Assembly (NCBI GenBank): GCA_016186695.1
Contig: JACPLC010000001.1
Location: 174,706 to 238,705 of the forward strand
From: Candidatus Kaiserbacteria bacterium
GTDB taxonomy: Bacteria > Patescibacteriota > Minisyncoccia > Phycocordibacterales > UBA2100
Length of the DNA stretch: 64,000 nucleotides
Reading direction: 5' to 3'
Under the pieces are notes generated by a model, which worked only from the letters and a program-made list of their open reading frames with translations, did not search any database and was not told the origin of the DNA. This document shows, piece by piece, positions 676 through 21,434 of this stretch. The position numbers and the translations under genes are program-made. Every line of letters begins with the position of its first letter. Within the stretch, counting starts at the first letter, position 1.

Positions 676-3600
676 ATGGCACGGCGCGCGTACGCGGCAG
701 CTTTCGCTGTCGTCGTATTTGCAGGATTTGTGGCGTGGACATATGAGTGGTCGGCTGCAGCAGTGCCGACCGCCCAAACAGCCTCAGCTGCAAGACCGGC
801 AGCAGAAGGCGAAGCGACGAACACCTACTGTCGGAAGGCTGCGAAGATAGTGGCACCAAGTGAACTCACTGCGCTGAAATGCTCTGCTTCGCTCGGCAAC
901 TCCTCTCATGTTCGGGCAGTACGCGGGGACTGTACGCTGAACGGAACGTGCAAGGCCGTGGAGTATCAAGGTCAAGACGACGAATGGGTGAAGATCGGAG
1001 ACGCAGATACTTCAAAGTTTTCATCGGAGAGTAGTATACCGACGGCTGTGGGGGAGTACGCGAGGTCGCAGAAAACACTTGATGCGCTCTATGGAAGGGC
1101 GGATGCGCTTCAGCAGGAGCAGGCCAATATTGCTCCGATCGGCGACGTGCTTTCGCCCGAGAAGCAAGCAGAACTCATTTCCCTTGAGCGCGCGATACAA
1201 AACGAGGAGTCTGTATTCTCCAAAATCGCGATGTTTGCGAGCGGGGAGGAGCAGACTCGTGACGTCGGTGCTACTGAGAGCGGAGGGGCATTCTCCGGTG
1301 CGTCTCCTGCAGGCCCGGTTGCTCTGAATCCGGACACTGCCGGGTCACCGACGAATCTAGGAGACAGAAGTGGTTCTCCTCGGAGTGCGGAATCCAGCTT
1401 CGGCGATGGTATAGCAGTTCCATATTTCAATGAAACGAAGCACTTGATGCAAGAAACCGGATTCGGACAGAATCCGGATGGAGCGCCCAGTGACGTCCGC
1501 GCCGTCCAACAAACGTTGCCGGAGCTTTCGCGGGCCGCTGAAGATCAGACGGGAGTGCGCGCATACTACCTTCCGACGGAGTTTACACTGCGTGATCCGG
1601 AGCGGCCCCTTACGTCTTCTGTCGATGCTAACCCAGATTCCCGGCAACTCGTTACGGTATTCGGCACGAAGGAGGAAGCAGATCGTGCTGTGGCAGCCTA
1701 CGTTGCTGCACAAACCTACCTTGCCCGAAATGAAGCGAGCGTAGCACAACGCGAGGCAGCGGTTTCAGAAGCATTCTCGGAGGATGCCAATAAGCCAGCG
1801 TTCTATGTTCCGCGTGGCGGACCTGAGCCACTATCGCATTTACGCGAGCAAAATGAGCAGATACGAGCAGCCTCTGAGGCATTTCTTGTGGGCGATCCAG
1901 CGTTCATGCAACGACTCTCAAAAATCGATGGGAGTCAACGTGAACTGCAGGGACCGGGCATTCTCTCAACGCTTCAACAGACGCTCCATGAGTATGGACA
2001 GACATCGGGCGATTGGGCCGGGGCTTGGAATTCTCTTAAAGAGGGAGACATTATCGGCGGGGTAACCAAGCATTGGTCAAACGTTTTGCAAGCGGTGCCC
2101 CGTACCATGGCAGCGAATCTCGATCGTGCGCTCGGCAATGATGCCGAGACCTCCTATCTTGGGGTGTTCTGCCAGTCGTGTGAGGCAGATATTGTGCGAT
2201 CGGCTCGCATCCAAGCTGGCATGGATATTGCGATGACGGGACTTCTGGGCAGAGAAGCACCTACGCTTCTCGCACGAGCGGGACAGGAGGTCTGGTCTTT
2301 GGCGCGGCCTCTCGGAGAGGATGCCGCGGTCCTATTTCGCAATGAGGGTTTTGCGTCACTCCTTGAGGGAACAGGTATAGAGGTACGGTCAGCAGGCTTG
2401 CTCGAATCTCCTCTCTCAAGCGGCAATGTACTCGATCTCGCCTATAACGCGCGAACAGGAGCATTCGAAATTTCAAACGTTGCCGAGAGAGCCGTAGTTC
2501 CCAGCAATGAGGGATTTCTCGCAGGTACGGAAATTCCTCTTGCGCCAGCAGTAGATTCAATCGGTTTAGAGACTCTTGTACCTCGCGTCGGGGTCGATGC
2601 ATTGGCAAGCGAATCCGGACTGTCTGCTCGCTTCGGCGGCCCAAGAGAACTTGGCATGACCTATGAAGGGAGAGGCACTGGTCTTGTACCAAGCACAGCA
2701 GTCGGGCTTGAACTGCCGCCCGGAACAGCAGCGCGCTTCGAGAGCTCGCATCCGATCCTCACGGGTCCCTCTGTTCCTGGGCTCGATCGTGCCGTTTTTT
2801 CTGAGCCACTTGCGGATAAACCGCCGCTTTCCTCCGATAATATCGCGATTGAAAAGGAATCAACATTGCCAACAAGCGCGACGTCATACACAGACGAACG
2901 ACTGGCTACCCTATATCGTCTACCAGAAAACGTTAATCTGGCGGCTGTCAGAGACATTCTTCCTTCTCCACCCGACCCTTTTCCTGTGAGTTTGCCTGAG
3001 ACAGACGATATATTGTTTCGGGTACCTGCTCGCAGTCTGACTGATGGGCAGATTGATGAAATTGTCGGTCGGACGACCTCTGCACTGAATGACTATTGGG
3101 CGCAGGAATTTACCGAGCGAGGGGAAGTGTACAATCCAGCAAACGTCGTGACGTACGGAGGCAAGTCACCAATCAGTGACCCTTCCGTCCCTATCCCACC
3201 TCCGGAAGAATATGGTCCCTATGGCGATCCAAGAACCGGAATTACGTACATCGATAGGCAAGCTATTAGAGATCTCAATTCGTTGTGGGTTCATTCTCGG
3301 GGTGAGCAAGTGCAAATGGTCGTGGCTCACGAAATAGCTCACGACGTCGCAAGACAGTTGGGAATCTACAACAACTTCGACACGGCCGCCAACTCCTCGC
3401 TTATGGAGCAGCAGGCACAATATCTTGCTGGAGCGAGCCTTCGAGAGGCTGGTTTGTTGCGTGAGGGCTATCCGGAACAGTTCTATTACTCTTCAGCAGC
3501 GTATGGACAGGATTTCAAACAATTAACAGAATTAAGCGCTAGCCTCAATGAGAGCTATTATACGTATCCGACAGGTAAGGAAATGGCTCAATCAATTTAT

Positions 3601-3861
3601 GCGGGCATGGCCGAAGCCAACGTCGATAAAGGATTCTCGATGCTCGGTGGAGAATCTCGTGTCCGCGCCCCAGATATATTAAGTGTTTCTGAGCCATCTC
3701 CTCCCTCATCTTGGTACGACACGGCGAGGACTACTGCAACGAACTTCATAGATGCCACGCAAACGAACATTGCACGCGGACTTGAGGCAGTGTATGAACG
3801 GCTTGGTATACCCAGCTCTGCATTACCCACATGGGCGTCCAAACGTTTGCTAAGGCGCTAG
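676..3861 (+). CDS. Large N-terminally membrane-anchored extracytoplasmic protein with a C-terminal HExxH (zincin-like) motif
   Basis: The ORF track gives 625..3861. Start moved to internal Met (MARRAYAAAFAVVVFAGFVAWTYEW), which gives a single TM/signal anchor. About 1000 aa are predicted outside, with low-complexity Ala/Ser/Pro regions. Near the C-terminus is VVAHEIAHDVARQLGIYNNFDTAAN, a HExxH followed by a downstream D/E typical of zincin folds. No named family recognised. Confidence 0.6.
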   Translation: MARRAYAAAFAVVVFAGFVAWTYEWSAAAVPTAQTASAARPAAEGEATNTYCRKAAKIVAPSELTALKCSASLGNSSHVRAVRGDCTLNGTCKAVEYQGQDDEWVKIGDADTSKFSSESSIPTAVGEYARSQKTLDALYGRADALQQEQANIAPIGDVLSPEKQAELISLERAIQNEESVFSKIAMFASGEEQTRDVGATESGGAFSGASPAGPVALNPDTAGSPTNLGDRSGSPRSAESSFGDGIAVPYFNETKHLMQETGFGQNPDGAPSDVRAVQQTLPELSRAAEDQTGVRAYYLPTEFTLRDPERPLTSSVDANPDSRQLVTVFGTKEEADRAVAAYVAAQTYLARNEASVAQREAAVSEAFSEDANKPAFYVPRGGPEPLSHLREQNEQIRAASEAFLVGDPAFMQRLSKIDGSQRELQGPGILSTLQQTLHEYGQTSGDWAGAWNSLKEGDIIGGVTKHWSNVLQAVPRTMAANLDRALGNDAETSYLGVFCQSCEADIVRSARIQAGMDIAMTGLLGREAPTLLARAGQEVWSLARPLGEDAAVLFRNEGFASLLEGTGIEVRSAGLLESPLSSGNVLDLAYNARTGAFEISNVAERAVVPSNEGFLAGTEIPLAPAVDSIGLETLVPRVGVDALASESGLSARFGGPRELGMTYEGRGTGLVPSTAVGLELPPGTAARFESSHPILTGPSVPGLDRAVFSEPLADKPPLSSDNIAIEKESTLPTSATSYTDERLATLYRLPENVNLAAVRDILPSPPDPFPVSLPETDDILFRVPARSLTDGQIDEIVGRTTSALNDYWAQEFTERGEVYNPANVVTYGGKSPISDPSVPIPPPEEYGPYGDPRTGITYIDRQAIRDLNSLWVHSRGEQVQMVVAHEIAHDVARQLGIYNNFDTAANSSLMEQQAQYLAGASLREAGLLREGYPEQFYYSSAAYGQDFKQLTELSASLNESYYTYPTGKEMAQSIYAGMAEANVDKGFSMLGGESRVRAPDILSVSEPSPPSSWYDTARTTATNFIDATQTNIARGLEAVYERLGIPSSALPTWASKRLLRR

Positions 3862-3906
3862 AAGTCGAACGCACTGTTCGTTTCTCTCTTTTGATACTAT
3901 AGGTCG

Positions 3907-4548
3907 ATGAAAGGCCGTAAGTATGTGCTTTTTGATTTCGATGGTGTCATTGCGGATTCGTATGCTGTCGCATGGTCGACAGCCAAAAAGCTATGCGCGC
4001 GCCTTACAGACGGTGAATATCGCTCACTTTTTGAAGGCAATGTGTATGAGACGCACGACGCGCTCCTCTCGGAGCCGCATGGGCCGGAATGTAGTCACGA
4101 TCTCGATTGGTTTAGCATCTTCACGCCAGCATTTGAAGAACAGGCGACATTGTTTGCGGGCATGCGCGAGGTTATTGAAAATCTTTCGCATACGTATGTG
4201 CTCGTTATCGTCTCCTCTACGCTCACGAGTCCGATTCAAGGATTTCTCGAGAAGCACCACATCGGCCGCTACTTTTCGGAGGTGATGGGAGCCGACGTGC
4301 ACACAGGGAAGCGCGAGAAAATCCACATGATCTTCGAAAAGTACGACATAACCGCTCCTCTGTGTGTCTTTATTACCGACACCTTGGGCGACATGCACGA
4401 GGCAAAGGCCGCGGGCGTCGGCGCGATAGGCGTCTCGTGGGGCTTCCACCCGCGCGAGACACTGCAAAAAGGAGAACCCTTCCGCATTGTCGACCGTCCC
4501 AAAGAAATTCCCGCAGCCGTCTCGGATTATTTTACCCGCTCGAACTAG
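3907..4548 (+). CDS. HAD-superfamily hydrolase (phosphoglycolate/ sugar-phosphatase-like, subfamily IA)
   Basis: N-terminal motif I VLFDFDGVIADS (DxDGx nucleophile). Motif II S/T is present in VIVSSTL. The C-terminal FITDTLGDMHEAKAAG matches motif IV (DxxxD). 213 aa, typical size. Confidence 0.75.
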   Translation: MKGRKYVLFDFDGVIADSYAVAWSTAKKLCARLTDGEYRSLFEGNVYETHDALLSEPHGPECSHDLDWFSIFTPAFEEQATLFAGMREVIENLSHTYVLVIVSSTLTSPIQGFLEKHHIGRYFSEVMGADVHTGKREKIHMIFEKYDITAPLCVFITDTLGDMHEAKAAGVGAIGVSWGFHPRETLQKGEPFRIVDRPKEIPAAVSDYFTRSN

Positions 4549-4557
4549 AGGGTAATA

Positions 4558-6057
4558 TTGAAACGCTATGTACGTCTTATGAGTATGAAACTTGCACGCG
4601 CTTTTGTCGTTGGTGTTTTTTTGCTTGTGCCATTTGCGGCAGAGGCAGCGATGCAGAAATCATTCGAAGTTTCGGGGTGGATTCCGTACTGGCGGGTGGC
4701 GACCGGCACTGCCGATGTGCTCCCGAATATTTCCACGCTCACGGAAGTGAACCCGTTCGTGTATACGCTCGTCGAGGATGGCGCACTTATCGATAACGGT
4801 CTCATCGACCAAGAGCCGTGGCTCTCGCTTCGGAGAGATGCGAGTAGTAAAAATATCCGCTTTATTCCGACGGTCATGACCGGCAACAGTGAACTCGTTC
4901 ACGCGCTTTTGAGCAATACGCAATCGCGCATCGCGCTTGAGGATACACTCGCAAACCTTGTGAAAGAGAGCGGGTTCGATGGCATCGATATCGACTTTGA
5001 GGGGAAAAAAGCGGAGACGAGAGACTACTACTCTACGTTTCTGAAAGGGCTCAAGATGCGCCTCAAGGATAAGTGGCTCATGTGCACCATCGAATCGCGA
5101 ACACCCATCGCCGACCGCTACTTCGGCACAACGCCGCCGCCGGACGCGACGACCTATGCAAACGACCTCAAGGCAATCGGGAAATACTGCGATCGCGTGC
5201 GCATCATGGCCTACGACCAGCAGGGTATCGACCTCAAACTCGCCGACGAGGCGGCAAAAGCCGGTCTTCTTTACGCGCCTGTCGCGGATCCGCGCTGGGT
5301 CGAAAAAGCCATACTTTTAGCCGCAAAAGACATTCCGAAGAATAAGCTCATGATCGGCGTTCCCACCTACGGCTATGAGTACGACGTCACTGCGTACGCC
5401 AACAATGAGTACGTGTACGACATCCTCTGGTCGTTCAATCCCGGTTACGCGATGCCTATCGCCGCATCTGCCGGCATCACGCCACAACGAGGGTATTGGG
5501 GAGAGATATTCTTCACCTATACGGGAGCGGGTACCTCCTCGCCGCCGCTCACAGACACGAACAACTCCGCACTCGTTGCTGCGACGAGCGCCTCGACGAT
5601 CGCGAGCACGACCAACTCAAACCTCACGTTCCGTATGATGGTCTGGCCCGACGCGGAATCCGTGCGGCAGAAAGTTGAGCTTGCGAAGCGTCTCGGCGTG
5701 CGCGGTATTTCCATCTTCAAACTCGACGGAGGACAGGATCCCGCAATTTGGAATGTGCTCGCGACGAGTGCGAAAGCGCCCGCGCGCGCTGCGCTCGCGC
5801 GGGCGCTCAAGCTCGGCTCTGTGGGCGAAGACGTGCGCACACTCCAGATGATACTGAATGCCGATGCGGCGACACAGATAGCAGCAAGCGGCACGGGTTC
5901 ACTGGGGAGTGAAACTACCCGCTTCGGCGCTCTCACCAAGCGCTCAGTACAAAAATTCCAGGAGAAGTACGGACTTTCGAAGCGCGGGGCTGCTGCCTAT
6001 GGATTCGTCGGCCCTAAAACTCGCGCGAAGCTGAACGAACTCCTGCAGACGCTCTAA
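4558..6057 (+). CDS. Secreted glycoside hydrolase family 18 (chitinase/ peptidoglycan-hydrolase-like) fused to a C-terminal peptidoglycan-binding (PG_binding_1-like) domain
   Basis: Signal peptide [30 protein letters not shown]. The GH18 catalytic signature DxxDxDxE is present as [11 protein letters not shown]. The C-terminal about 90 aa ([18 protein letters not shown]...[16 protein letters not shown]) is the same module found at the C-termini of the 2353-aa protein and of the 22685..23761 ORF. Confidence 0.75.
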
Positions 6058-6200
6058 AACCACATTTAGGCTATACACAGGTTTGCACCTTGCCGGCAAA
6101 TAGTGCACTAGCCCCGTGCCTATAATGGACGTATTAGGCGCTCGTTGTCGCGTGCGTCGCATTAATCGGGGTAGTTTTTATACATTTCATTAACAATCAT

Positions 6201-13860: not shown

Positions 13861-14046
13861 ATGGCCAGATACGGTACATATGCAGGGCAAAAGGTTCGTC
13901 GCGCGATGCGCGAGATGAAGCAGGGCAAGCTCCGCTCCGGCAGGAGCGGGAAGCGCGTGACCTCGCGCAAACAGGCGATCGCAATCGGGCTTTCGGAAGC
14001 GCGACGCGCAGGTGGCAAGGTGCCGCGTGCTCCGCGAAGCCGCTAG
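13861..14046 (+). CDS. Small basic conserved protein (resembles the about 60-aa DUF6496-type proteins)
   Basis: 61 aa, MARYGTYAGQKVRRAMREMKQGKLRSGRSGKRVTSRKQAIAIGLSEARRAGGKVP. The KxGxLxSG..G.KVTSRKQAIAIGLSEAR pattern matches a widespread small-protein family that I recall as DUF6496. This identification is from memory only. Confidence 0.45.
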   Translation: MARYGTYAGQKVRRAMREMKQGKLRSGRSGKRVTSRKQAIAIGLSEARRAGGKVPRAPRSR

Positions 14047-15968
14047 AACTGAAAGAATCCCGCGAGTAGATAGAAGACAGATGCGACGAACCGTGCGGCG
14101 GCACTTGCGTGCGGCGCATCACTCGGTGGCGGTGGAGGCGGTTGTTGGGATGTCCCTCCATCAGGCGGAGGTTGCATCATCCCTCCATCGGGTGGTGGCA
14201 TCATGCCGCCACCGTCAGGGGGTGGAACAAAGCCTCCACCTTCGGGCGGATGATATTCTCCGGGCGGGAGCATGCCGCCTTCAGGCGGCCGAAATTCTCC
14301 GGGCGGAGGCATAAATTGCTGTGACTGCTGTTGATACTGTTGTTCGTACTGTCGCTGGTACTCCTGTTTGTACTGCTCTTGATATTGCTGCTGATACTGT
14401 TGTTGAAATTCTGCGGGCTGCCCTTCGGGTGAATGGCGGAAGCTTTCGGGCGGCATCATTCCTTCGGGCTGGTATTGTTTCCCTTCGCCCGGCGGAGGTC
14501 CCCTGAAGTCCATCGGTTGCCGATTTTCCTGCATGAATTTCTGTCGCTCCTCCTCGCTCATGTTCTTAATCTTTTCCGCATCCGGTCCTCCCATGCCAGG
14601 CTCTCCACGAAATCCGTGCTGCTGAAATTTTTCGCGGCACGCTTCCGGGTTTTGCTTGCACTCTTCCATGAGTCCGGGCGGGATCTGAAAACCGCGCTGT
14701 TCCATCGCACGCTCCTGGCCCGTCGCGTGATCCGGCCCCTGGCCTTCCGGACCTCCACCAAATCCGCGCTCTTTCGCGAATGCCTGGCACTCCTCTCGGT
14801 GCGCAGGGTCATCGCAAAACGTGCGGCACTCTTCTCCCTTGCATCCGCCCGGGCCCGTCATGTTTCCCATTTCTTTCATCCGCGATGCATCTTCCTCGCT
14901 CATGAGACCGTTTTCGATTGCGAATTGCATGCAGGCTTCCTGATGCGCCTGATCGTCGCAGTAGCGGCGACACGCTTCTCCGCGGCATCCTCCCGGACCC
15001 GGCTTGTTGCCGATTTTTCGCGCCTGCGCTGCCTCCTCTTTCGACATCATCCCGTTTTCTTCCGCAAACGCGATGCACGCGTCCATGTGCTCCGGATCTT
15101 CGCAGTAGGTCTCACACGCTCTTCCGATGCACCCTCCGGGCCCCGCCTTTCCTGCAAATTTCTTCGCCCGTTCCAATTCTTCGGGCGACATGAGGCCGTT
15201 CTCTTCCGCAAACTGCAGACATTCGTTCATGTGCGCAGGATCGTCGCAATACGTCTTGCATGCCTCGCGCCGACATCCGCCCGGTCCCGGCTTGTCGCCC
15301 ATTTTCTTTGCCATCGTCGCCTCCTCCGCGCTCATGAATCCGTTCTCTACCGCGAAGTTCACGCATTCATCCATGTGCGCAGGATCGTCGCAATACGTCT
15401 TGCATGCCTCGCGCCGACATCCGCCCGGTCCCGGCTTGTCGCCCATTTTCTTTGCCATCTCCAGCTCTTCTTTCGGTATCAAATTGTGCTTTTCGGCAAA
15501 CGCGATGCACTCCTCGAAGTGCCCGTCGGCGTCGCAATAGGCGCGGCACTCCTTCTCGCTCTTGCAGCCGCCGGGACCGCCCTTCGTGCGAACTTCTTTG
15601 GCGATCGCCACCTCCTCGGGAGGAATGAGCCCGTTTTTCTCGGCGAAGGCCAGACATTCGTCAATATGTGCATCGTCATCGCAATACGCTTTGCACTGCA
15701 GCCCCACGCAGCCGCCGGGCCCTTTCGCGCTCCCGATCTTACGGGCGATTGCCGTCTCTTCCTCGCTCATCAAGCCGTTTTCTTCGGCAAAATCAATGCA
15801 TTGTTCGTGGTTTGCAGGATCTTCGCAGTACGTGTGACATGCCTCTTTCGATTCACATCCGCCCAATTCCGGGATAGGGAACGTAATGGTATCTTCTTGC
15901 GCAAATGCAACACCGGCTGCAAACAATATTCCCGCTGCAGCCGTTGCTATCAGTGTTTTTGTATTCAT
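14043..15968 (-). CDS. Secreted tandem-repeat protein: eight about 48-aa four-cysteine repeats (GPGGC-x4-C-x3-CDDxAHxxEC-x-FAxENGLMSxEE), then a Gln/Tyr-rich and Pro-rich tail ending in a C-terminal hydrophobic segment
   Basis: The ORF track gives 14043..15989 with a GTG start. Internal ATG at 15968 chosen because it gives a clean signal peptide MNTKTLIATAAAGILFAAGVAFA|QED. The repeats are very regular. Repeats 3 and 4 are identical over 33 aa, which corresponds to an exact about 140-bp DNA duplication (15241..15318 equals 15381..15458 on the + strand). The tail carries QQQYQQQYQEQYKQEYQRQYEQQYQQQ, then MPPPGEF/PPEGG repeats, then FVASVFYLLAGFFQF. No known family recognised. Confidence 0.8.
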   Translation of the reverse strand: MNTKTLIATAAAGILFAAGVAFAQEDTITFPIPELGGCESKEACHTYCEDPANHEQCIDFAEENGLMSEEETAIARKIGSAKGPGGCVGLQCKAYCDDDAHIDECLAFAEKNGLIPPEEVAIAKEVRTKGGPGGCKSEKECRAYCDADGHFEECIAFAEKHNLIPKEELEMAKKMGDKPGPGGCRREACKTYCDDPAHMDECVNFAVENGFMSAEEATMAKKMGDKPGPGGCRREACKTYCDDPAHMNECLQFAEENGLMSPEELERAKKFAGKAGPGGCIGRACETYCEDPEHMDACIAFAEENGMMSKEEAAQARKIGNKPGPGGCRGEACRRYCDDQAHQEACMQFAIENGLMSEEDASRMKEMGNMTGPGGCKGEECRTFCDDPAHREECQAFAKERGFGGGPEGQGPDHATGQERAMEQRGFQIPPGLMEECKQNPEACREKFQQHGFRGEPGMGGPDAEKIKNMSEEERQKFMQENRQPMDFRGPPPGEGKQYQPEGMMPPESFRHSPEGQPAEFQQQYQQQYQEQYKQEYQRQYEQQYQQQSQQFMPPPGEFRPPEGGMLPPGEYHPPEGGGFVPPPDGGGMMPPPDGGMMQPPPDGGTSQQPPPPPPSDAPHASAAARFVASVFYLLAGFFQF

Positions 15969-16009
15969 GTATTTGTATGTACTACGCACTACTCACTACT
16001 AACTACATA

Positions 16010-16237
16010 CTACTCAAACGGATTCGTCTTCACGCCTCCGTACGGATTCGTCTTCACGTCTTCGAGCGGATTCGTCGTCATGTCCTCGAAGGGGTTCACG
16101 GCCTGCTCCTCGGAGGCTTGTTGCGCCGTGAGCGCAGCGGCCGATTTCTCCCAGCCAATGTCGTAGCCGAAGTAAAAGCCTGCGGCGGCTCCGAGGGCAA
16201 GTCCAGCGACGATCCCGATAATGAGCTGTTGGTTCAT
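16010..16237 (-). CDS. Small single-TM protein with C-terminal NPxE/TNP(F/L/Y) mini-repeats, immediately upstream of and co-oriented with the Cys-repeat protein
   Basis: The ORF track gives 16010..16288. Start moved to Met18 (MNQQLIIGIVAGLALGAAAGFYFGY), giving a 75-aa protein of one TM helix plus NPFEDMTTNPLEDVKTNPYGGVKTNPFE. There is a 40-bp gap to the downstream gene on the same strand, which suggests a two-gene operon. Confidence 0.5.
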   Translation of the reverse strand: MNQQLIIGIVAGLALGAAAGFYFGYDIGWEKSAAALTAQQASEEQAVNPFEDMTTNPLEDVKTNPYGGVKTNPFE

Positions 16238-16374
16238 AGTGTGGTGGGTAAATAGTATTGACCTCATTATAGGCACGTTTCGGGGCAATCGGCCGCCCCG
16301 TGTTGATAACCCTCGCTATTTTCATCCACATTTTTTCCACCTTTTTTCCCCAGTTCTTGCCTACTATGCGCGGT

Positions 16375-17536: not shown

Positions 17537-18427
17537 ATGCGCGGCCTTCAATTCTCTACCTCCTCGGCCGCGCTCGTCTTTGCTATCGCACTCGCGTCAC
17601 TCTTTTGGATTGCGCTTTCGGTGAGCGCGATGGAGTCCGACGTTCCGATACCTGTTGAGATCGAAGAGGTGGCCGTGCCCAACACTGCGCACTTTCCGCC
17701 GGCGCAGGATCTGCATGAGTACATCGAGGTGATGGAAGGGTGCAATTACGCCTACGCGGGGGAGTGCGTGCGCTCGTATGCGGGGCCGGGGAGAGAATAC
17801 GCAACGGTCAACCGTCTGCGAAAAGGAATCGTGCTGAAGGTCGGGGGCTCGGTCTTGAACGACCTGCGTGTGTGGTACCGAATTATTTTTGACGAGCCTC
17901 TGCGCTATCCAGAACGAGTTGCGCGGGCGCAGTACGTTGCCGCCGAAGACGTGCGGCACTTTTACAGCAACGGCGTACAGACGCGCGGCTCGCAGGGGAG
18001 TGCCACCCATTCGACTCAGCTCAGGGTCGAGGCATCGACAAGCTCAGCCTCGACGAAGCACATACTCGTCGATCGCTCGGAGCAAATGCTCTATGCCTAC
18101 GAGGGCGAGACGCTCTTTATGCAAGTTTCCATCTCCACGGGTATTCAACTCACTCCGACGCCCCGCGGCGTCTTCACCATTTATAAAAGGACACCCACCC
18201 GCTACATGCAGGGTCCCCTGCCGGACATCAGCGAAAAATATTACGACTTGCCGGGCGTGCCATGGAATCTCTACTTCACCAACGAAGGCGGCGTTATTCA
18301 CGGCGCGTATTGGCACAAAAGTTTTGGCACAAGGTGGTCGAACGGCTGCGTGAACCTCCCGCTTGCCGAGGCGCGCACGCTCTACGAATGGGCCGAAGTC
18401 GGCACCAAAGTCCTCGTCCGCGACTGA
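17537..18427 (+). CDS. L,D-transpeptidase (YkuD/ ErfK family)
   Basis: N-terminal signal anchor. The C-terminal catalytic domain contains the His...Ser-x-Gly-Cys signature (HGAYWHKSFGTRWSNGCVNLP). Confidence 0.8.
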   Translation: MRGLQFSTSSAALVFAIALASLFWIALSVSAMESDVPIPVEIEEVAVPNTAHFPPAQDLHEYIEVMEGCNYAYAGECVRSYAGPGREYATVNRLRKGIVLKVGGSVLNDLRVWYRIIFDEPLRYPERVARAQYVAAEDVRHFYSNGVQTRGSQGSATHSTQLRVEASTSSASTKHILVDRSEQMLYAYEGETLFMQVSISTGIQLTPTPRGVFTIYKRTPTRYMQGPLPDISEKYYDLPGVPWNLYFTNEGGVIHGAYWHKSFGTRWSNGCVNLPLAEARTLYEWAEVGTKVLVRD

Positions 18428-18431
18428 ACCA

Positions 18432-18457
18432 CCGATTCCCCAAACCCAAGATTTGTG
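18432..18457. repeat. Direct repeat copy 1 (ccgattccccaaacccaagatttgtg), second copy at 18994..19019
   Basis: Read directly from the sequence: an identical 26-mer. The match extends to about 30 bp with one mismatch. The two copies bracket the tspO gene. Confidence 0.85.
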
Positions 18458-18464
18458 AGATGAT

Positions 18465-18881
18465 TTGCGGACGATGGGTATGTATGCGTGGTATGCGACG
18501 CTCATAAAGCCTTCGTGGGCGCCGCCTGCGTGGCTTTTCTCGCCGGTGTGGACGGTCCTCTACGCCATCATCGCAGTCACCTTCGGCTATGTATTCTACA
18601 AAGCATTCACGAAGCAGCTACCATGGATGGTCGCGCTGCCATTCGCACTCAATCTCATTTTCAACTTTGCTTTCACGCCGCTCCAATTCGGTTTCCAAAA
18701 CAATCTTCTTGCCGCGGCCGACGTCCTGCTCGTTCTCGCGACGCTCGTCTGGGCGTTTACCCTGCGAAGCGCGTTGCGCGAAGCAGGGCTCGGCTGGGTA
18801 CTGTATGCCAACATTCCGTATCTCCTCTGGGTCTCCTTTGCCACGGTACTCCAACTCACCGTCACCTATCTGAATCTCTAG
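18465..18881 (+). CDS. tspO: TspO/MBR family tryptophan-rich sensory protein
   Basis: WYATLIKPSWAPPAWLFSPVWTVLYAIIAVTFGYV matches the TspO signature (PxWxPPxWxFxPVWxxLY). About five TM helices, 138 aa. Confidence 0.8.
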   Translation: MRTMGMYAWYATLIKPSWAPPAWLFSPVWTVLYAIIAVTFGYVFYKAFTKQLPWMVALPFALNLIFNFAFTPLQFGFQNNLLAAADVLLVLATLVWAFTLRSALREAGLGWVLYANIPYLLWVSFATVLQLTVTYLNL

Positions 18882-18993
18882 TGTGATGTTCAAACATTTT
18901 GCAAAATGTTGAAATGAAAGATGGGGTGCAGGTGGGGTGCATGGTGGAGGCGCGGGCGTGGGGCGGGGAGGGGTGAGTGGGGATAGCAAGAGC

Positions 18994-19019
18994 CCGATTC
19001 CCCAAACCCAAGATTTGTG
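18994..19019. repeat. Direct repeat copy 2 (ccgattccccaaacccaagatttgtg)
   Basis: Identical to 18432..18457. It lies just upstream of the probable real start (19048) of the methyltransferase gene, at the left edge of the low-GC RM island. Confidence 0.85.
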
Positions 19020-19047
19020 GGATTGGGCATATGATAAAATCGAGTTA

Positions 19048-19887
19048 ATGCCGATACTCACCCAACCACAGAAAGGCAACAAGATCCTCTCGTCTGTTCC
19101 AATAAAGCCATATTTCAAACAAGATAACTTTGTGCTTTATCACGGCGATTCAATTTCGTTGCTCAGTTCGTTGCCGGAAAACTCAATTGACATGATTTTT
19201 GCAGATCCCCCATACAATCTTTCCAACGGAGGGTTCAGTGTTCACGCGGGGCGACGTGTCAGCGTGAATAAAGGAAACTGGGACAAAAGCAATGGATTTA
19301 AAGACGATTACGAGTTTCATTATCGTTGGTTAGAAGCGTGCAGACGCATACTAAAACCACACGGAACCCTCTGGGTGAGCGGCACATATCATTCCATCTA
19401 TCAGTGTGGACACGCCTTGCAGTCACTCGGCTATCACATCCTCAATGACATTTCGTGGTTTAAGCCAAACGCTTCTCCAAATCTCAGCTGCAGATTTTTT
19501 ACTGCAAGCCACGAGACGCTCATTTGGGCCCGAAAAGAAAAGAAAGCAAAACACCATTTTGATTACGATTTAATGAAAGAGGGAGATTGGAGGAGAGATT
19601 TTCTAAAGAAGCCGGGATTACAGATGCGTTCGGTATGGTCAATCGGCACACCTAGACCGGAAGAAAAGAAATACGGGAAACATCCGACTCAAAAACCGCT
19701 GGAGTTATTAAGACGAATTGTACTTGCAAGCACAAAGGTGGACGATATAGTCTTGGATCCATTCACGGGTAGCTCTACAACAGGATTGGCAGCTTCAATG
19801 AATAAGCGAAAATTCATAGGAGTTGATCTTGAAAAAAGCTATCTGGAACTTTCTGTAAAAAGATTTAATGACACGAACAAAACCTGA
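19048..19887 (+). CDS. Type II DNA methyltransferase, beta-class N6-adenine/N4-cytosine (DPPY) methylase
   Basis: Motif IV DMIFADPPYNL precedes motif I VLDPFTGSSTTGLAA (FxGxG), which is the beta-class order. HPTQKPLELLRRIV is typical of N-4/N-6 MTases. The ORF track starts at 18937; internal Met 19048 preferred because upstream is Gly/Arg-rich and overlaps the repeat. The gene is about 42% GC against about 60% for the flanks. Confidence 0.8.
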   Translation: MPILTQPQKGNKILSSVPIKPYFKQDNFVLYHGDSISLLSSLPENSIDMIFADPPYNLSNGGFSVHAGRRVSVNKGNWDKSNGFKDDYEFHYRWLEACRRILKPHGTLWVSGTYHSIYQCGHALQSLGYHILNDISWFKPNASPNLSCRFFTASHETLIWARKEKKAKHHFDYDLMKEGDWRRDFLKKPGLQMRSVWSIGTPRPEEKKYGKHPTQKPLELLRRIVLASTKVDDIVLDPFTGSSTTGLAASMNKRKFIGVDLEKSYLELSVKRFNDTNKT

Positions 19888-19899
19888 CATTCTTTTCGC

Positions 19900-20544
19900 A
19901 TGCAAATAATTACGCGCCCGGTGGCTGTTGAAAATTTGCGCAAGTATATCGGCCAAAATCTGAGAACTTTAGCTGCGGGATTCGGTATCACGACCTACGA
20001 AACTGGCAAACAAAATAAAGGCTGGAAAGGGTTGGTTCTCGAGCGATTAGCGGGGTTGAGCACAAACGTTACCAAAGCTCCGAATGGTCTGACTTTCGAA
20101 CTTAAGTCGGTGGCTTTTCGATTTGTTGGGAAAGATCTTGTTCCTAAGGAGACGATGGCAATAACGATGATTAATCCGGAGGAATTGAAAGCCCACTCAT
20201 TCTTTGAAAGCCATGTTTGGGCAAAACTCAAAGTGGTTGTATTTTGCGCTGTTGAGTGGAGTGGACAAAATGCTCAAAGTGCCAAACTTTTACATGTCGC
20301 TAGTTTAGATTTTGCGGAGGACGACGCACTTATACAGGAAATAAAGGCTGACTACGACCTCATTCGAAATAAGCTCATCAAGCAAGGGTTCAAGGCATTG
20401 ACTGGTAGAGATGGGAAGTGGATTCAGGCACGAACGAAAGGAGTCGGGGGAATAAATCCTCGAACTGGCGCTCGTCGACCGATTACCCGCGCATTTTATG
20501 CTCGAACAAGTTTAGTAAAGAAGATTTTTGAGATAGCGAGTTAG
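19900..20544 (+). CDS. Restriction endonuclease of the MutH/Sau3AI family (GATC-type specificity likely)
   Basis: A MutH-like pattern runs along the length. NKGWKGLVLERLAGL aligns with MutH DKGWIGVLLEIWLG. TFELKS aligns with ELKT. GKWIQARTKGVGG aligns with GEYLQIRPKAANA. RAFYARTSLVKKIF aligns with RGFYLKKNFTSALL. It lies 12 bp downstream of the MTase and has the same low GC. Confidence 0.7.
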   Translation: MQIITRPVAVENLRKYIGQNLRTLAAGFGITTYETGKQNKGWKGLVLERLAGLSTNVTKAPNGLTFELKSVAFRFVGKDLVPKETMAITMINPEELKAHSFFESHVWAKLKVVVFCAVEWSGQNAQSAKLLHVASLDFAEDDALIQEIKADYDLIRNKLIKQGFKALTGRDGKWIQARTKGVGGINPRTGARRPITRAFYARTSLVKKIFEIAS

Positions 20545-20564
20545 GTTATGATAGGCTTGGGAGG

Positions 20565-21434
20565 ATGAATAAACTCGTTGTTGTTGTGGTGGTGCTCGTC
20601 GCACTCGTCGGCGGATTTTTTTTGTTCAGTTCTTCCGTCTCCCAAGAAAAACAAGGTTCAGACGATAAAGATGCCGAGTCTTTGACAGACGGAGCATCCG
20701 CAGTCTCGCCTCCACCCACGAGCGCTTCCGTACAGAAAGACCAAATCCTTCCGCCTCCTCCATCCCCAAAGCCGGCAGTGCAGCAACAGCACTTCACTCC
20801 GCAACCTCCGAGCCCTCAAACAAATTCCGATGAACCGCCTTTGAAATTGAAAGGTATCGGCGTCAATTTTGAGGATTTTACATTCACGAAAGAGAAGCTT
20901 CAATTTGGCCGGCTTTTTATGGGCTTTGGTTTTGTTATTCCCGGAAGCAGCTCAAGCTCGGGCCAAGATAAATCGAATCCCCAGCCGACCTATGTACTGC
21001 CCCTAGGGACGCCCGTGCGCTCAATCGTAGATGGGGTAGTGGCGGCTATTCCGACGCTCTGGAGCGGAGATGTATCCATTCAGGTCACTGCAAACGGGAA
21101 AATGGAAAAATGGGTCTATGAGACGGAGCATCTTATTAATCCGAAGGTTGCGGTGGGCGACAAGGTCGTCGCCGGTCAGATAATCGGGGAGGTGGGTTCT
21201 TTCGGCAACGGGGATCCTCCCGGATACGGAGCCGTGGAGATCGGATTAGTGAAAGGAGGTCAAACCCCACAGCATGTGTGCCCGTTTGCATATCTTGATG
21301 ATTCGATTCGAGAGGCAACGTTTGCAAAGATGAGAGACCTTTTCCAATCATGGGAAGAGTATGTGGGAGACCAAACGCTGTATTCCGATACGCAAATTCC
21401 CGGGTGCGTCACACTCAATCCGATCGAAGGATGA
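20565..21434 (+). CDS. Secreted protein with a Pro-rich linker and a degenerate (probably non-catalytic) LytM/ M23-like domain
   Basis: N-terminal anchor MNKLVVVVVVLVALVGGFFLF. PPPPSPKPAVQQQHFTPQPPSPQ linker. The C-terminal topology DGVVAAI...YETEHL...VAVGDKVVAGQIIGEVGSFG follows the M23 beta-barrel, but the HxxxD and HxH zinc ligands are not evident. Confidence 0.45.
   Translation: MNKLVVVVVVLVALVGGFFLFSSSVSQEKQGSDDKDAESLTDGASAVSPPPTSASVQKDQILPPPPSPKPAVQQQHFTPQPPSPQTNSDEPPLKLKGIGVNFEDFTFTKEKLQFGRLFMGFGFVIPGSSSSSGQDKSNPQPTYVLPLGTPVRSIVDGVVAAIPTLWSGDVSIQVTANGKMEKWVYETEHLINPKVAVGDKVVAGQIIGEVGSFGNGDPPGYGAVEIGLVKGGQTPQHVCPFAYLDDSIREATFAKMRDLFQSWEEYVGDQTLYSDTQIPGCVTLNPIEG

Follow-up and report, generated by a model that had tools for sequence, protein, structure and literature searches.

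An acquired, probably GATC-type restriction-modification cassette beside a repeated motif in a Kaiserbacteria genome

The window, by which we mean the whole 64-kb stretch of Candidatus Kaiserbacteria DNA analysed here, contains a variable interval that is anchored on its left by a native L,D-transpeptidase gene (ldt, 17537..18427; Pfam YkuD, E = 6e-22) and followed on its right by a native gene for an M23-like peptidase (20565-21434, behind a junction at 20549 that is placed by blastn to a sister genome and by synteny). Between the two lie the first copy of a repeat (18432..18461), a tspO gene (18474..18881, with an alternative start at 18465; Pfam TspO_MBR, E = 2e-24), a palindromic element, a G-rich spacer, the second copy of the repeat (18994..19023), which lies at the left edge of a low-GC cassette, and the two genes of that cassette. 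The first of these genes (19048..19887) encodes a beta-class DPPY N6-adenine DNA methyltransferase (MTase) of the DpnA/M.LlaDCHIB type, and the second (19900..20544) encodes a single-domain nuclease of 214 aa, of the MutH/Sau3AI family, which is predicted to be a restriction enzyme. All of these features are on the + strand, except for the palindromic element, to which no strand is assigned. The open reading frame calls and the Pfam matches agree with the genes and gene families given in an earlier account of this DNA, made from its letters alone (the sequence-only reading).

The cassette differs from its surroundings in base composition. Its GC content is 44.0%, against a mean of 55.0% for the rest of the 64-kb window; the two cassette genes have GC of 0.43-0.45, compared with 56-61% in the adjoining genes, and GC3 is 0.43-0.45 in the cassette genes versus 0.67-0.76 in the neighbouring genes. 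The figures of 42% and 60% that had been quoted earlier are thus slightly off, although the contrast that they describe is present.

Comparison with a syntenic sister locus (L030) delimits what is peculiar to the window. In the sister, ldt is followed by an oppositely oriented CAP-domain gene and then by the M23 gene, and neither tspO nor the restriction-modification (RM) pair is present. The window's ldt is 67-74% identical at the nucleotide level to its syntenic copy, and window positions 20549-21432 match L030 6986-7889 at 82.5% (blastn). Homology to the sister stops at window position 18457 and restarts at 20549, 5 nt past the nuclease stop codon. Since tspO and the RM pair are both missing from this syntenic sister, the window-specific segment is 18458-20548, which comprises tspO with remnants of its own locus, the second repeat copy, and the RM pair. 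The absence of both RM genes between ldt and the M23-like gene of the sister bears out the horizontal origin that had been proposed for them. The sequence-only reading had also described tspO as a gene of native GC; its composition is indeed native-like (GC 0.556, GC3 0.71), but tspO, too, is absent from the sister locus, and this had been missed. The M23-like gene was considered as a further part of the island, given its intermediate GC, its patchy homologues and the motif found beside it in another genome (L024, described below), and was ruled out by its synteny in the sister. A search for an empty site in the same strain gave none; every Logan contig from the same study has the arrangement seen here.

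The tspO gene is 76-77% identical at the nucleotide level to the tspO of other Kaiserbacteria, where it stands in different contexts. The palindromic element that follows it here (18888..18917), with an 18-nt perfect core AACATTTTGCAAAATGTT, has blastn matches in two such loci, L061 (5459-5488, 6043-6065 and 6329-6358) and L062 (5470-5492 and 5756-5786). In other Kaiserbacteria this same element flanks an HTH gene beside tspO; here it is left without the HTH gene. The G-rich spacer (18918..18993) appears related, in reverse, to a C-rich stretch located ahead of the palindrome at other tspO loci, on a comparison by eye with L061 and L062 that amounts to weak evidence.

The two cassette genes travel together. 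They are co-oriented and separated by 12 nt in the window, and by 1 nt or a 4-nt overlap in other copies. The same MTase-then-nuclease pair is seen amid unrelated flanks in Patescibacteria, in a defence island of Elusimicrobiota, and in a metagenome-assembled genome labelled 'Deltaproteobacteria', so that both genes recur in other phyla as one unit, as expected of the RM pair that had been proposed. The nuclease has more than 2000 homologues, of which the top 120 are 77-83% identical to it and nearly all exactly 214 aa long, and identity within the subfamily stays near 80% between phyla, which include those of the Candidate Phyla Radiation (CPR) and the Elusimicrobiota. At the nucleotide level, identity drops to about 69%; dS is saturated, and dN/dS, wherever it is computable, lies at 0.05-0.09. 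Therefore, the nuclease is under strong purifying selection. The locus thus documents a very large and highly conserved family of stand-alone MutH-fold nucleases that accompany DpnA-type or Dam-type MTases, a family for which, to our knowledge and from literature searches, there is no biochemical characterisation. Homology of the cassette to its counterparts in other phyla starts only at 19174, and the repeat is absent 5' of the cassette there, which rules out the repeat as a part of the mobile cassette. We read positions 19048-20544 as a Type II RM cassette of two genes that was gained by horizontal transfer, ordinary as a kind, and probably directed at GATC.

Gene callers start the MTase reading frame at a GTG at 18937 and so read through the second repeat copy. 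A start at the ATG at 19048, or later, is more likely, because homologues begin about 15 aa ahead of the LYH motif. The sequence TGATAAAAT (19032..19040, + strand), which resembles an extended -10 element and ends 7 nt 5' of this ATG, may be a promoter with a nearly leaderless transcript; it was read from the sequence and was not called by a consensus promoter scan.

The MTase matches Pfam N6_N4_Mtase over its full length (E = 1e-57) and the PADLOC MTase_II model (E = 1e-97), and both its catalytic motif IV (FADPPYN) and its SAM-binding motif I (DPFTGSSTTG) are present. Its best annotated relatives are the second MTases of operons composed of a Dam MTase, a beta-class MTase and a DpnII-family nuclease, carried by pSRQ700 of L. 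lactis and by plasmids of Staphylococcus. The closest is M.LlaDCHIB, from the LlaDCHI/DpnII-type operon of pSRQ700 (52% identity, 278 bits), as against 44% identity and 205 bits for CcrM; the partner MTase is thus of DpnA type, as had been suggested. The loops PNLSCR[FY]FT and LSNGG..VSV.KG.WD are common to the MTase and LlaDCHIB, and the target-recognition loops agree with those of LlaDCHIB rather than with those of CcrM. LlaDCHI is a GATC system (PMC4190342). With the same motif order and recognition loops, the MTase would be predicted to yield the same product, G(m6A)TC. The systems differ in their make-up: LlaDCHI and DpnII comprise two MTases, one Dam-type and one DpnA-type, together with a DpnII-family nuclease (PF04556), whereas here a single MTase is joined to a MutH-family nuclease.

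The resemblance to CcrM deserves attention, since it raises the alternative that the pair recognises a site different from GATC, such as the GANTC of HinfI and CcrM. CcrM is the top PDB match of the MTase (6pbd, E = 9e-60), and the NCBIfam CcrM model scores 246 bits, although this lies far under its cut-off of 830. However, the MTase stops about 6 aa past the core and lacks the 80-aa C-terminal domain, which CcrM requires for activity and M.HinfI requires for double-stranded DNA (PMC7672430). Moreover, CcrM residues L42, R44, F125, G127, R129 and N132 are all substituted, among them the GANTC loop residues L42, R44, R129 and N132 (PMC7672430). On the comparison with LlaDCHIB, the CcrM recognition loops and the C-terminal domain, we reject a CcrM/HinfI-like GANTC specificity. 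Oligonucleotide usage and the nuclease point the same way. In the host part of the window, GANTC is not depleted (observed/expected ratio 1.0-1.06), and GATC is weakly depleted (0.85; among 16 palindromic 4-mers, only two have a lower ratio). MutH, and Sau3AI with its isoschizomers, which are the members of the nuclease family that have been characterised, recognise GATC. Relatives of the nuclease on viral contigs stand beside the same beta MTase in L058 and L059, and beside D12/Dam-class MTases in L057 and L060. We therefore regard a non-GATC specificity as highly improbable. GATC with N6-adenine methylation is our best inference for the cassette, since the MTase is nearest to M.LlaDCHIB and farther from CcrM, and since relatives of the nuclease pair with this MTase or with Dam-type ones; it draws on the MutH/Sau3AI fold of the nuclease model, the conserved MutH DNA-contact positions, the type of the MTase, and the Dam-class partners of the relatives.

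By fold and profile, the nuclease is a member of the MutH/Sau3AI family with a variant active site. It matches Pfam MutH (PF02976) at 31.6 bits, above the cut-off of 23, and MutH 1azo at E = 2e-8. Its AF2 model has a pLDDT of 92.3, and Foldseek aligns this model to MutH-DNA complexes (2aor/2aoq) with a TM score of 0.79 and to Sau3AI (4pxg) with 0.69. MutH is thus the best match in both sequence and structure, at 20-24% identity. The best NCBIfam match, the MutH equivalog model NF003458, reaches 49 bits where 243 are required; TIGR02248 yields 38 bits (cut-off 230) and the Sau3AI model 46 bits (cut-off 300). Since the nuclease falls so far under the MutH and Sau3AI equivalog cut-offs, its specificity cannot be transferred from either by orthology.

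The individual positions are more telling. E56, E77, K79, K116, K48-G49, R184, K186 and Y212 of MutH are kept across 74 diverse relatives. The equivalents of K48-G49, R184, K186 and Y212, which we take to be the GATC-contact and methyl-sensing positions of E. coli MutH, occur in the nuclease and in 65-76 of 76 aligned sequences. The active site retains the E-L-K sequence and counterparts of E56 and K116, with Asn in place of the first Asp. The motif-by-motif alignment with MutH claimed in the sequence-only reading accordingly holds at E56, E77-x-K79, K116, K48-G49, R184, K186 and Y212, but it had missed the Asn at the position of catalytic Asp70; Pro185 is replaced as well, by Thr. The Asn is invariant among 119 close relatives; in the alignment of diverse relatives it is found in 20 of 76 sequences, and Asp and Asn alternate at this position among relatives that otherwise keep E56, E77, K79 and K116. 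Apart from the two substitutions and the missed equivalog cut-off, the nuclease differs from MutH in belonging to a mobile operon with an MTase. We know of no description of MutH-type repair in the phyla that carry the nuclease.

An Asn at this first metal-binding position could mean reduced or nicking-only activity. It is possible, then, that the nuclease is a crippled or nicking-only relative of MutH, or that the pair forms a mobile Dam/MutH-like module that marks strands for repair. MutH is itself a latent nickase dependent on MutL, and its equivalog model is the best NCBIfam match. In addition, Kat-MutH of katablepharid mitochondria, which resembles our nuclease in being a stand-alone MutH-like protein beside an MTase (Kat-MutH-CM) in a predicted GATC RM system, and which differs in its C5 MTase partner and flavobacterial ancestry, was inactive in E. 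coli, neither toxicity nor activity being detected (PMC8099122). Nevertheless, the nuclease always lies directly downstream of an MTase and moves with it; it is found in defence islands and is missing from the sister locus; neither mutL nor mutS adjoins any of its copies in the loci examined; its dN/dS values speak against a decaying gene; and the exchange of Asp for Asn takes place among relatives whose remaining catalytic residues are retained. We therefore consider these non-restriction roles quite unlikely.

Read as a restriction-modification cassette, the pair would work as follows. The MTase would most likely produce G(m6A)TC, and the nuclease would most likely cleave unmethylated GATC, with the adenine methyl group blocking cleavage, because Tyr212 of MutH senses the methyl group and this Tyr is conserved here. 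The nuclease would have to either nick both strands in turn as a monomer, as do BcnI and MvaI, or dimerise on DNA, since it has neither the effector domain of Sau3AI nor a MutL partner gene. Sau3AI shares with it the fold of the catalytic domain, the Pfam family and the predicted site, but is a protein of about 470-490 aa with a MutH-like catalytic domain, a MutH-like effector domain and allosteric activation. The partner of Sau3AI is a cytosine-C5 MTase, in contrast to the N6-adenine MTase found here. BcnI and MvaI are a plausible model for the mechanism, being small enzymes of one domain whose folds distantly resemble that of MutH and which cleave both strands as monomers, but they recognise CCSGG and CCWGG, are partnered by N4-cytosine MTases, and align with our model at a Foldseek TM score of only about 0.42, which is weak. 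Should the nuclease prove active, it would represent a minimal, monomeric enzyme for GATC whose active site departs from the canonical one in having Asn for Asp; it would bear on the relationships among MutH, Sau3AI and restriction enzymes, and might serve as a nicking or restriction reagent.

We turn now to the repeat. The 26-mer CCGATTCCCCAAACCCAAGATTTGTG occurs in exactly two copies in the 64-kb window, at 18432-18457 and 18994-19019, and with one mismatch the match extends to 30 nt. There are no further copies with up to three mismatches in the window, nor any in 100 shuffles. The two copies flank tspO, one lying after the ldt stop codon and the other at the left edge of the RM pair, just as had been noted earlier. 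In the sister, a diverged copy CCAAAGGTTTCTCAGACCCAAGATTTTTGGTAAT directly follows the ldt stop codon, between convergent genes, and the first copy in the window is therefore the ancestral one. Within the second copy lies an imperfect inverted repeat, CCCAAACCCA-N7-TGGGATTGGG (about 19001-19027), with a right arm that reaches 4 nt beyond the 30-nt repeat. In full it reads CCCAAACCCA-AGATTTG-TGGGATTGGG, with arms that agree at 9 of 10 positions, and it is clear in this copy only.

The repeat belongs to a conserved intergenic motif of roughly 30-45 nt, with core CAAACCCAAGATTTGTGG, of which we have fewer than ten independent instances, all from related aquifer Kaiserbacteria. Most copies keep the left arm and the spacer, together with only about 6 nt of the right arm. 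The second copy in the window is identical at 29 of 29 nt to L024 1472-1500 (copy B), which lies 5' of an S24 + Type I M/S module; that module adjoins the orthologous M23 gene, and the M23 genes are only 87% identical. L024 likewise has two motif copies that bracket one gene. In L014, the motif stands 5' of a MvaI/BcnI nuclease and LexA-MTase module, a true MvaI/BcnI-family system at the equivalent hotspot. A weaker version precedes DpnI in L062, and another lies close to a D12 MTase and AlwI module in L061.

Since the motif borders different RM modules in related genomes, the locus is best read as a recombination hotspot. The cassette is part of the variable interval bounded by ldt and the M23-like gene, and in several Kaiserbacteria the motif stands 10-40 nt 5' of the gene that opens a variable module, in most cases an RM module. 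Units would be added next to the motif; for the motif itself, we infer a role in recombination. Against a hotspot count the lack of any called recombinase gene in the loci, the inverted repeat that is clear in one copy only, the small number of motif instances, and the failure to find an empty site. On the whole, we think it probable that the window carries an acquired Type II RM cassette, most likely of GATC specificity, at a recombination hotspot beside the motif. The sequence-only reading had offered either a hotspot or a duplication created by the RM insertion: the former agrees with our results, and the latter does not, because the first copy is ancestral, the repeats bracket tspO, and the motif borders other RM modules.

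A related alternative is that the two copies are a long target-site duplication from a single insertion, in which the inserted unit was tspO and the sequence has no lasting role. RM genes are reportedly associated with such events, termed 'insertion with long target duplication' by Nobusato et al. in 2000. The two copies agree at all 26 nt whereas the sister's orthologous copy has diverged, the sister locus has no tspO, and the tspO unit bears the remnants of another tspO locus, namely a palindromic operator without its HTH gene. Such a duplication would not, however, account for the motif beside different modules in L024 (in two copies), in L014, and weakly in L061 and L062. Nor would a passive duplicate be expected to match copy B of L024 perfectly next to M23 genes that have diverged as far as stated above. 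We judge this account to be on the unlikely side.

The motif could instead be a shared regulatory element, such as a promoter, an operator or a leader, that was duplicated to serve both tspO and the RM operon. In five clear non-sister instances a start codon on the + strand lies 12-40 nt 3' of the motif, and the distance from motif to ATG is 23 nt for both the second window copy and copy B of L024. Yet the motif is too near the start codons for a standard -35/-10 promoter, and the promoter scan is empty there; in the sister it sits between convergent genes; there are just two to three copies per 64 kb; neither an RNA family nor a stable fold was found (the repeat region has no unusual fold, z = 0.47); and no candidate regulator is consistently linked to it. 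A regulatory role therefore seems doubtful to us.

A bolder proposal extends the hotspot reading and joins two claims: that the motif is a cassette-exchange recombination site in Kaiserbacteria, a CPR lineage, and that the nuclease subfamily is an active restriction enzyme with Asn for Asp. The best copy would supply two 10-nt inverted arms and a 7-nt spacer as the site for a recombinase encoded elsewhere in the genome, and restriction or defence modules, and occasionally others such as tspO, would be inserted and swapped beside it, as in integrons and Xer/dif modules. No integrase or recombinase family is present among the called genes of the window and of the compared loci; a recombinase could act in trans. 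We hold the two claims together to be rather improbable. The motif is a more interesting lead than the RM pair; were it a recombination site, it would reveal how CPR bacteria with tiny genomes swap defence genes.

Several simpler identities of the motif were tried and rejected. It is not a tRNA-derived att site or a known RNA, as no tRNA lies within 30 kb and Rfam gives no match. A dif or terminus reading does not fit the cumulative GC skew, which shows a shallow minimum near 14-20 kb rather than a maximum. In viral contigs, the 17 matches to a 16-mer of the motif are about as many as estimated by chance, and their flanks do not match. In three loci the motif is in frame with a downstream ATG (..PQTQDLWD..), but the version in L062 has only non-synonymous changes and the three downstream proteins are unrelated, so that it is not coding sequence. 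Finally, a third motif-like site in the window, at 20522-20534, is a coincidence: it encodes the conserved C-terminus of the nuclease, VKKIFE[IT]AS.

The five genes of the locus have the reading frames and families that the sequence-only reading had assigned to them: a YkuD L,D-transpeptidase gene (ldt, 17537-18427), tspO (starting at 18465 or 18474 and ending at 18881), an N6_N4 methyltransferase (19048-19887), a MutH-family nuclease (19900-20544) and an M23-like peptidase (20565-21434). The methyltransferase (MTase) and nuclease genes, which form the restriction-modification (RM) cassette, have a GC content of 0.43-0.45 and a GC3 of 0.43-0.45, while GC3 is 0.67-0.76 in the flanking ldt, tspO, obg and the next gene. 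The proposed low-GC island is clear as a contrast, although its figures of 42% versus 60% become 44% for the cassette and a mean of 55% for the window. The M23-like gene, with a GC3 of 0.51, falls between the host genes and the island.

Contigs of the sister genome Kaiserbacteria RIFCSPLOWO2_01_FULL_54_24 (L026-L031) show synteny to the window, both having the order hypothetical gene, YkuD, a variable part, M23, VIT1, sortase and DHO_dh. The YkuD-M23 interval of the sister holds neither tspO nor RM genes; a CAP-domain gene on the opposite strand stands there instead. Homology to the sister by blastn ends at 18457, the exact end of the 26-mer in the first repeat copy, and restarts at 20549, 5 nt past the nuclease stop; therefore, the window-specific segment is 18458-20548. 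Although its GC3 is intermediate, the M23-like gene belongs to the native locus. Many unrelated CPR lineages, Woesebacteria and Microgenomates among them, share the C-terminal ~200 amino acids of its product at 68-88% identity, which is unusually high conservation over such distances for a cell-wall hydrolase.

The same arrangement, an MTase gene followed by an abutting or overlapping gene for a 214-aa nuclease, is found again in three settings whose flanks are unrelated: on Patescibacteria contigs, amid other defence genes on an Elusimicrobiota contig, and between housekeeping genes in a 'Deltaproteobacteria' MAG. The Elusimicrobiota copy (L005) has an extra 142-aa ORF (3582-4010) between the two genes, overlapping the nuclease start and without a match in Pfam. 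In one Patescibacteria genome (L001-L003, 1-1336), the cassette lies 1.9 kb from a second pair, composed of a weak DpnII-family match and an N6_N4 MTase 32% identical to that of the window, so that two adenine-methylation systems may stand side by side.

Homologues of the nuclease number more than 2000, and the best 120 of these are 77-83% identical and nearly all exactly 214 aa long. Between cassettes, DNA identity is only ~69% (over window positions 19174 to 20543 or 20550), as against protein identities of ~80% for the nuclease and ~70% for the MTase; synonymous sites are saturated, and dN/dS, where computable, is 0.05-0.09. Thus, the cassette family is old and under strong purifying selection, and is not a decaying relic.

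The nuclease matches Pfam MutH at 31.6 bits (cut-off 23) and E. coli MutH (1azo) over nearly its full length (E 2e-8). An AlphaFold model built from 53 relatives (pLDDT 92.3) finds as its best structural matches MutH-DNA complexes (TM 0.79) and then Sau3AI (TM 0.69); MvaI and BcnI follow at a wide distance. Among 1.84 billion cluster representatives searched, only 354 clusters matched, the majority of which are stand-alone ~200-aa proteins. We aligned 74 diverse relatives from these clusters with E. coli MutH, for 76 sequences in all. Across the 74 relatives, MutH positions E56, E77, K79, K116, K48-G49, R184, K186 and Y212 are conserved; in MutH-DNA structures, K48-G49, R184, K186 and Y212 make contacts to the bases of GATC, Y212 being the sensor of the adenine methyl group. 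Most relatives have Thr in place of Pro185 of MutH. At the position of Asp70, the first catalytic acid of MutH, our protein has Asn, as do 20 of the 76 sequences in the alignment, and the segment APNG...ELK is invariant in the close subfamily (119/119). By sequence, the nuclease belongs to a distinct subfamily, the orthologue of neither MutH nor Sau3AI, since it scores far below the NCBI equivalog cut-offs of both; its close relatives already carry the NCBI name 'MutH/Sau3AI family endonuclease'. What goes beyond routine here is that a very large, conserved subfamily invariably has Asn at its first catalytic position. This residue may lower activity or alter metal binding.

For the MTase, a GANTC specificity was considered because CcrM, the GANTC enzyme, is both its top solved structure (E 9e-60) and its best NCBIfam model (246 bits). 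That score, however, is far under the model's cut-off of 830. The MTase also ends a few residues past its catalytic core and so is without an 80-aa C-terminal segment on which CcrM depends for activity and M.HinfI for double-stranded DNA (PMC7672430). Most residues listed there as conserved among GANTC enzymes are replaced in our MTase, namely L42, R44, F125, G127, R129 and N132. Finally, the best tblastn match among annotated plasmids is Lactococcus lactis pSRQ700 (52% identity, 278 bits), followed by Staphylococcus plasmids. On either kind of plasmid, the match falls on the second MTase in an operon that combines a Dam-class MTase with one of the beta class and with a DpnII-family nuclease, which is the LlaDCHI/DpnII arrangement; LlaDCHI is a GATC system (PMC4190342). 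The cassette MTases share with M.LlaDCHIB, the DpnA-type second MTase of LlaDCHI, the loops PNLSCR[FY]FT and LSNGG..VSV.KG.WD, whereas CcrM has PNFKGTRFAN in place of the first and also differs in the second. GANTC specificity was rejected on these grounds, and both the plasmid match and the shared loops support the DpnA-type partner proposed from sequence.

Relatives of the nuclease in viral contigs adjoin the same beta-class MTase (L058, L059) or a D12/Dam-class MTase (L060, and L057, whose nuclease is 51% identical); DpnII-type GATC systems use these two MTase classes. GATC sites in the host part of the window number 298, an observed/expected ratio of 0.85 that ranks third lowest among the 16 palindromic 4-mers, and for the four GANTC words the ratio is 1.0-1.06. 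From these indirect arguments, we consider GATC, methylated as m6A, the likely target of the cassette. The MTase, transcribed first, would methylate GATC adenines, and the nuclease would cut GATC when unmethylated. Sau3AI has an effector domain and MutH has its activator MutL; because our nuclease has neither, it would have to nick strand by strand as a monomer, for which BcnI and MvaI, nicking each strand in turn, provide one model, or else dimerise. A protist mitochondrion has a MutH-like nuclease, partnered by a C5 MTase, that showed no activity (PMC8099122), so our nuclease may be inactive as well. The strength of purifying selection and the constant linkage to an MTase nevertheless argue for a functional nuclease. 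The RM pair is a further case of a known kind, and the first interpretation holds for the most part.

The window contains exactly two copies of the 26-mer CCGATTCCCCAAACCCAAGATTTGTG, at the positions originally reported (18432-18457 and 18994-19019), and the repeat extends to 30 nt with one mismatch. No further match with up to 3 mismatches was found within the 64-kb window, nor in shuffles. Since the sister holds a diverged version immediately after its ldt stop, the first copy is ancestral at its position.

The motif borders other modules as well. A metagenome scan with its 20-nt core retrieved L024, another Kaiserbacteria locus, where a 29-nt stretch identical to the second copy lies ~4.6 kb upstream of an M23 gene 87% identical to ours. 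The module between them (1472-6094; also L032, L033) encodes an S24 peptidase, a 649-aa HsdM-like MTase with HSDR_N_2 and N6_Mtase domains, a DUF3800 protein and two HsdS-like ORFs, with no HsdR visible. A second, less similar copy lies upstream of the preceding single gene, which is thus bracketed by two copies as in the window. In the Kaiserbacteria genome L014, an MvaI/BcnI-family nuclease gene is preceded, at a distance of 22 nt, by the core AAGATTTGTGGGAT and adjoins a 640-aa fusion (module 77-2775, of low GC). The fusion joins a full LexA (DNA-binding domain and S24 peptidase) to an SPPY N6/N4 MTase, and could be an SOS-cleavable controller-MTase. A profile of these copies detected weaker versions close to tspO in two further Kaiserbacteria, just upstream of a DpnI-family gene (L062) and near a D12 MTase and AlwI module (L061).

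We read the locus as a putative recombination hotspot marked by this motif. The hotspot half of the original proposal is therefore supported, but simple target duplication by RM insertion is not, because the first copy is ancestral and the motif borders other modules; possibly the duplication was made when tspO was inserted. In the second copy, a 7-nt spacer separates two 10-nt inverted arms, which resembles a tyrosine-recombinase core site; other copies conserve the right arm poorly, and no recombinase is called in any of the compared loci. The motif is not part of the cassette copies compared in other phyla, is neither a tRNA fragment nor a known RNA, was not called by a promoter scan and is not enriched in viral contigs. 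The other result beyond routine is that related CPR genomes share one motif at the edges of different restriction modules.

A palindromic element (18888-18917) whose 18-nt core AACATTTTGCAAAATGTT is perfect follows tspO and recurs in L061 (5459-5488, 6043-6065, 6329-6358) and L062 (5470-5492, 5756-5786), where it brackets a small ArsR/MarR-type HTH gene adjoining tspO. It is probably the operator of that regulator, left in the window without it, and its position in L061 and L062 suggests that the unit moved in from a locus of this type. Between the palindrome and the second repeat copy lies a strongly G-rich spacer (18918-18993, GGGGTGCAGGTGGGGTGCATGGTGGAGG...GGGGCGGGGAGGGGTGAGTGGGG) that resembles the reverse complement of a C-rich stretch before the palindrome in both loci. 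There, too, tspO lies near restriction genes: a double D12 MTase with an AlwI-family nuclease (L061 923-4734) and a DpnI-family, methyl-dependent GATC nuclease (L062 3430-4266). Elsewhere in the window, 14000-16300 shows strong negative GC and AT skew with overlapping long ORFs on both strands, 24-nt tandem repeats occupy 16014-16097, and the cumulative GC skew has a shallow minimum at ~14-20 kb.
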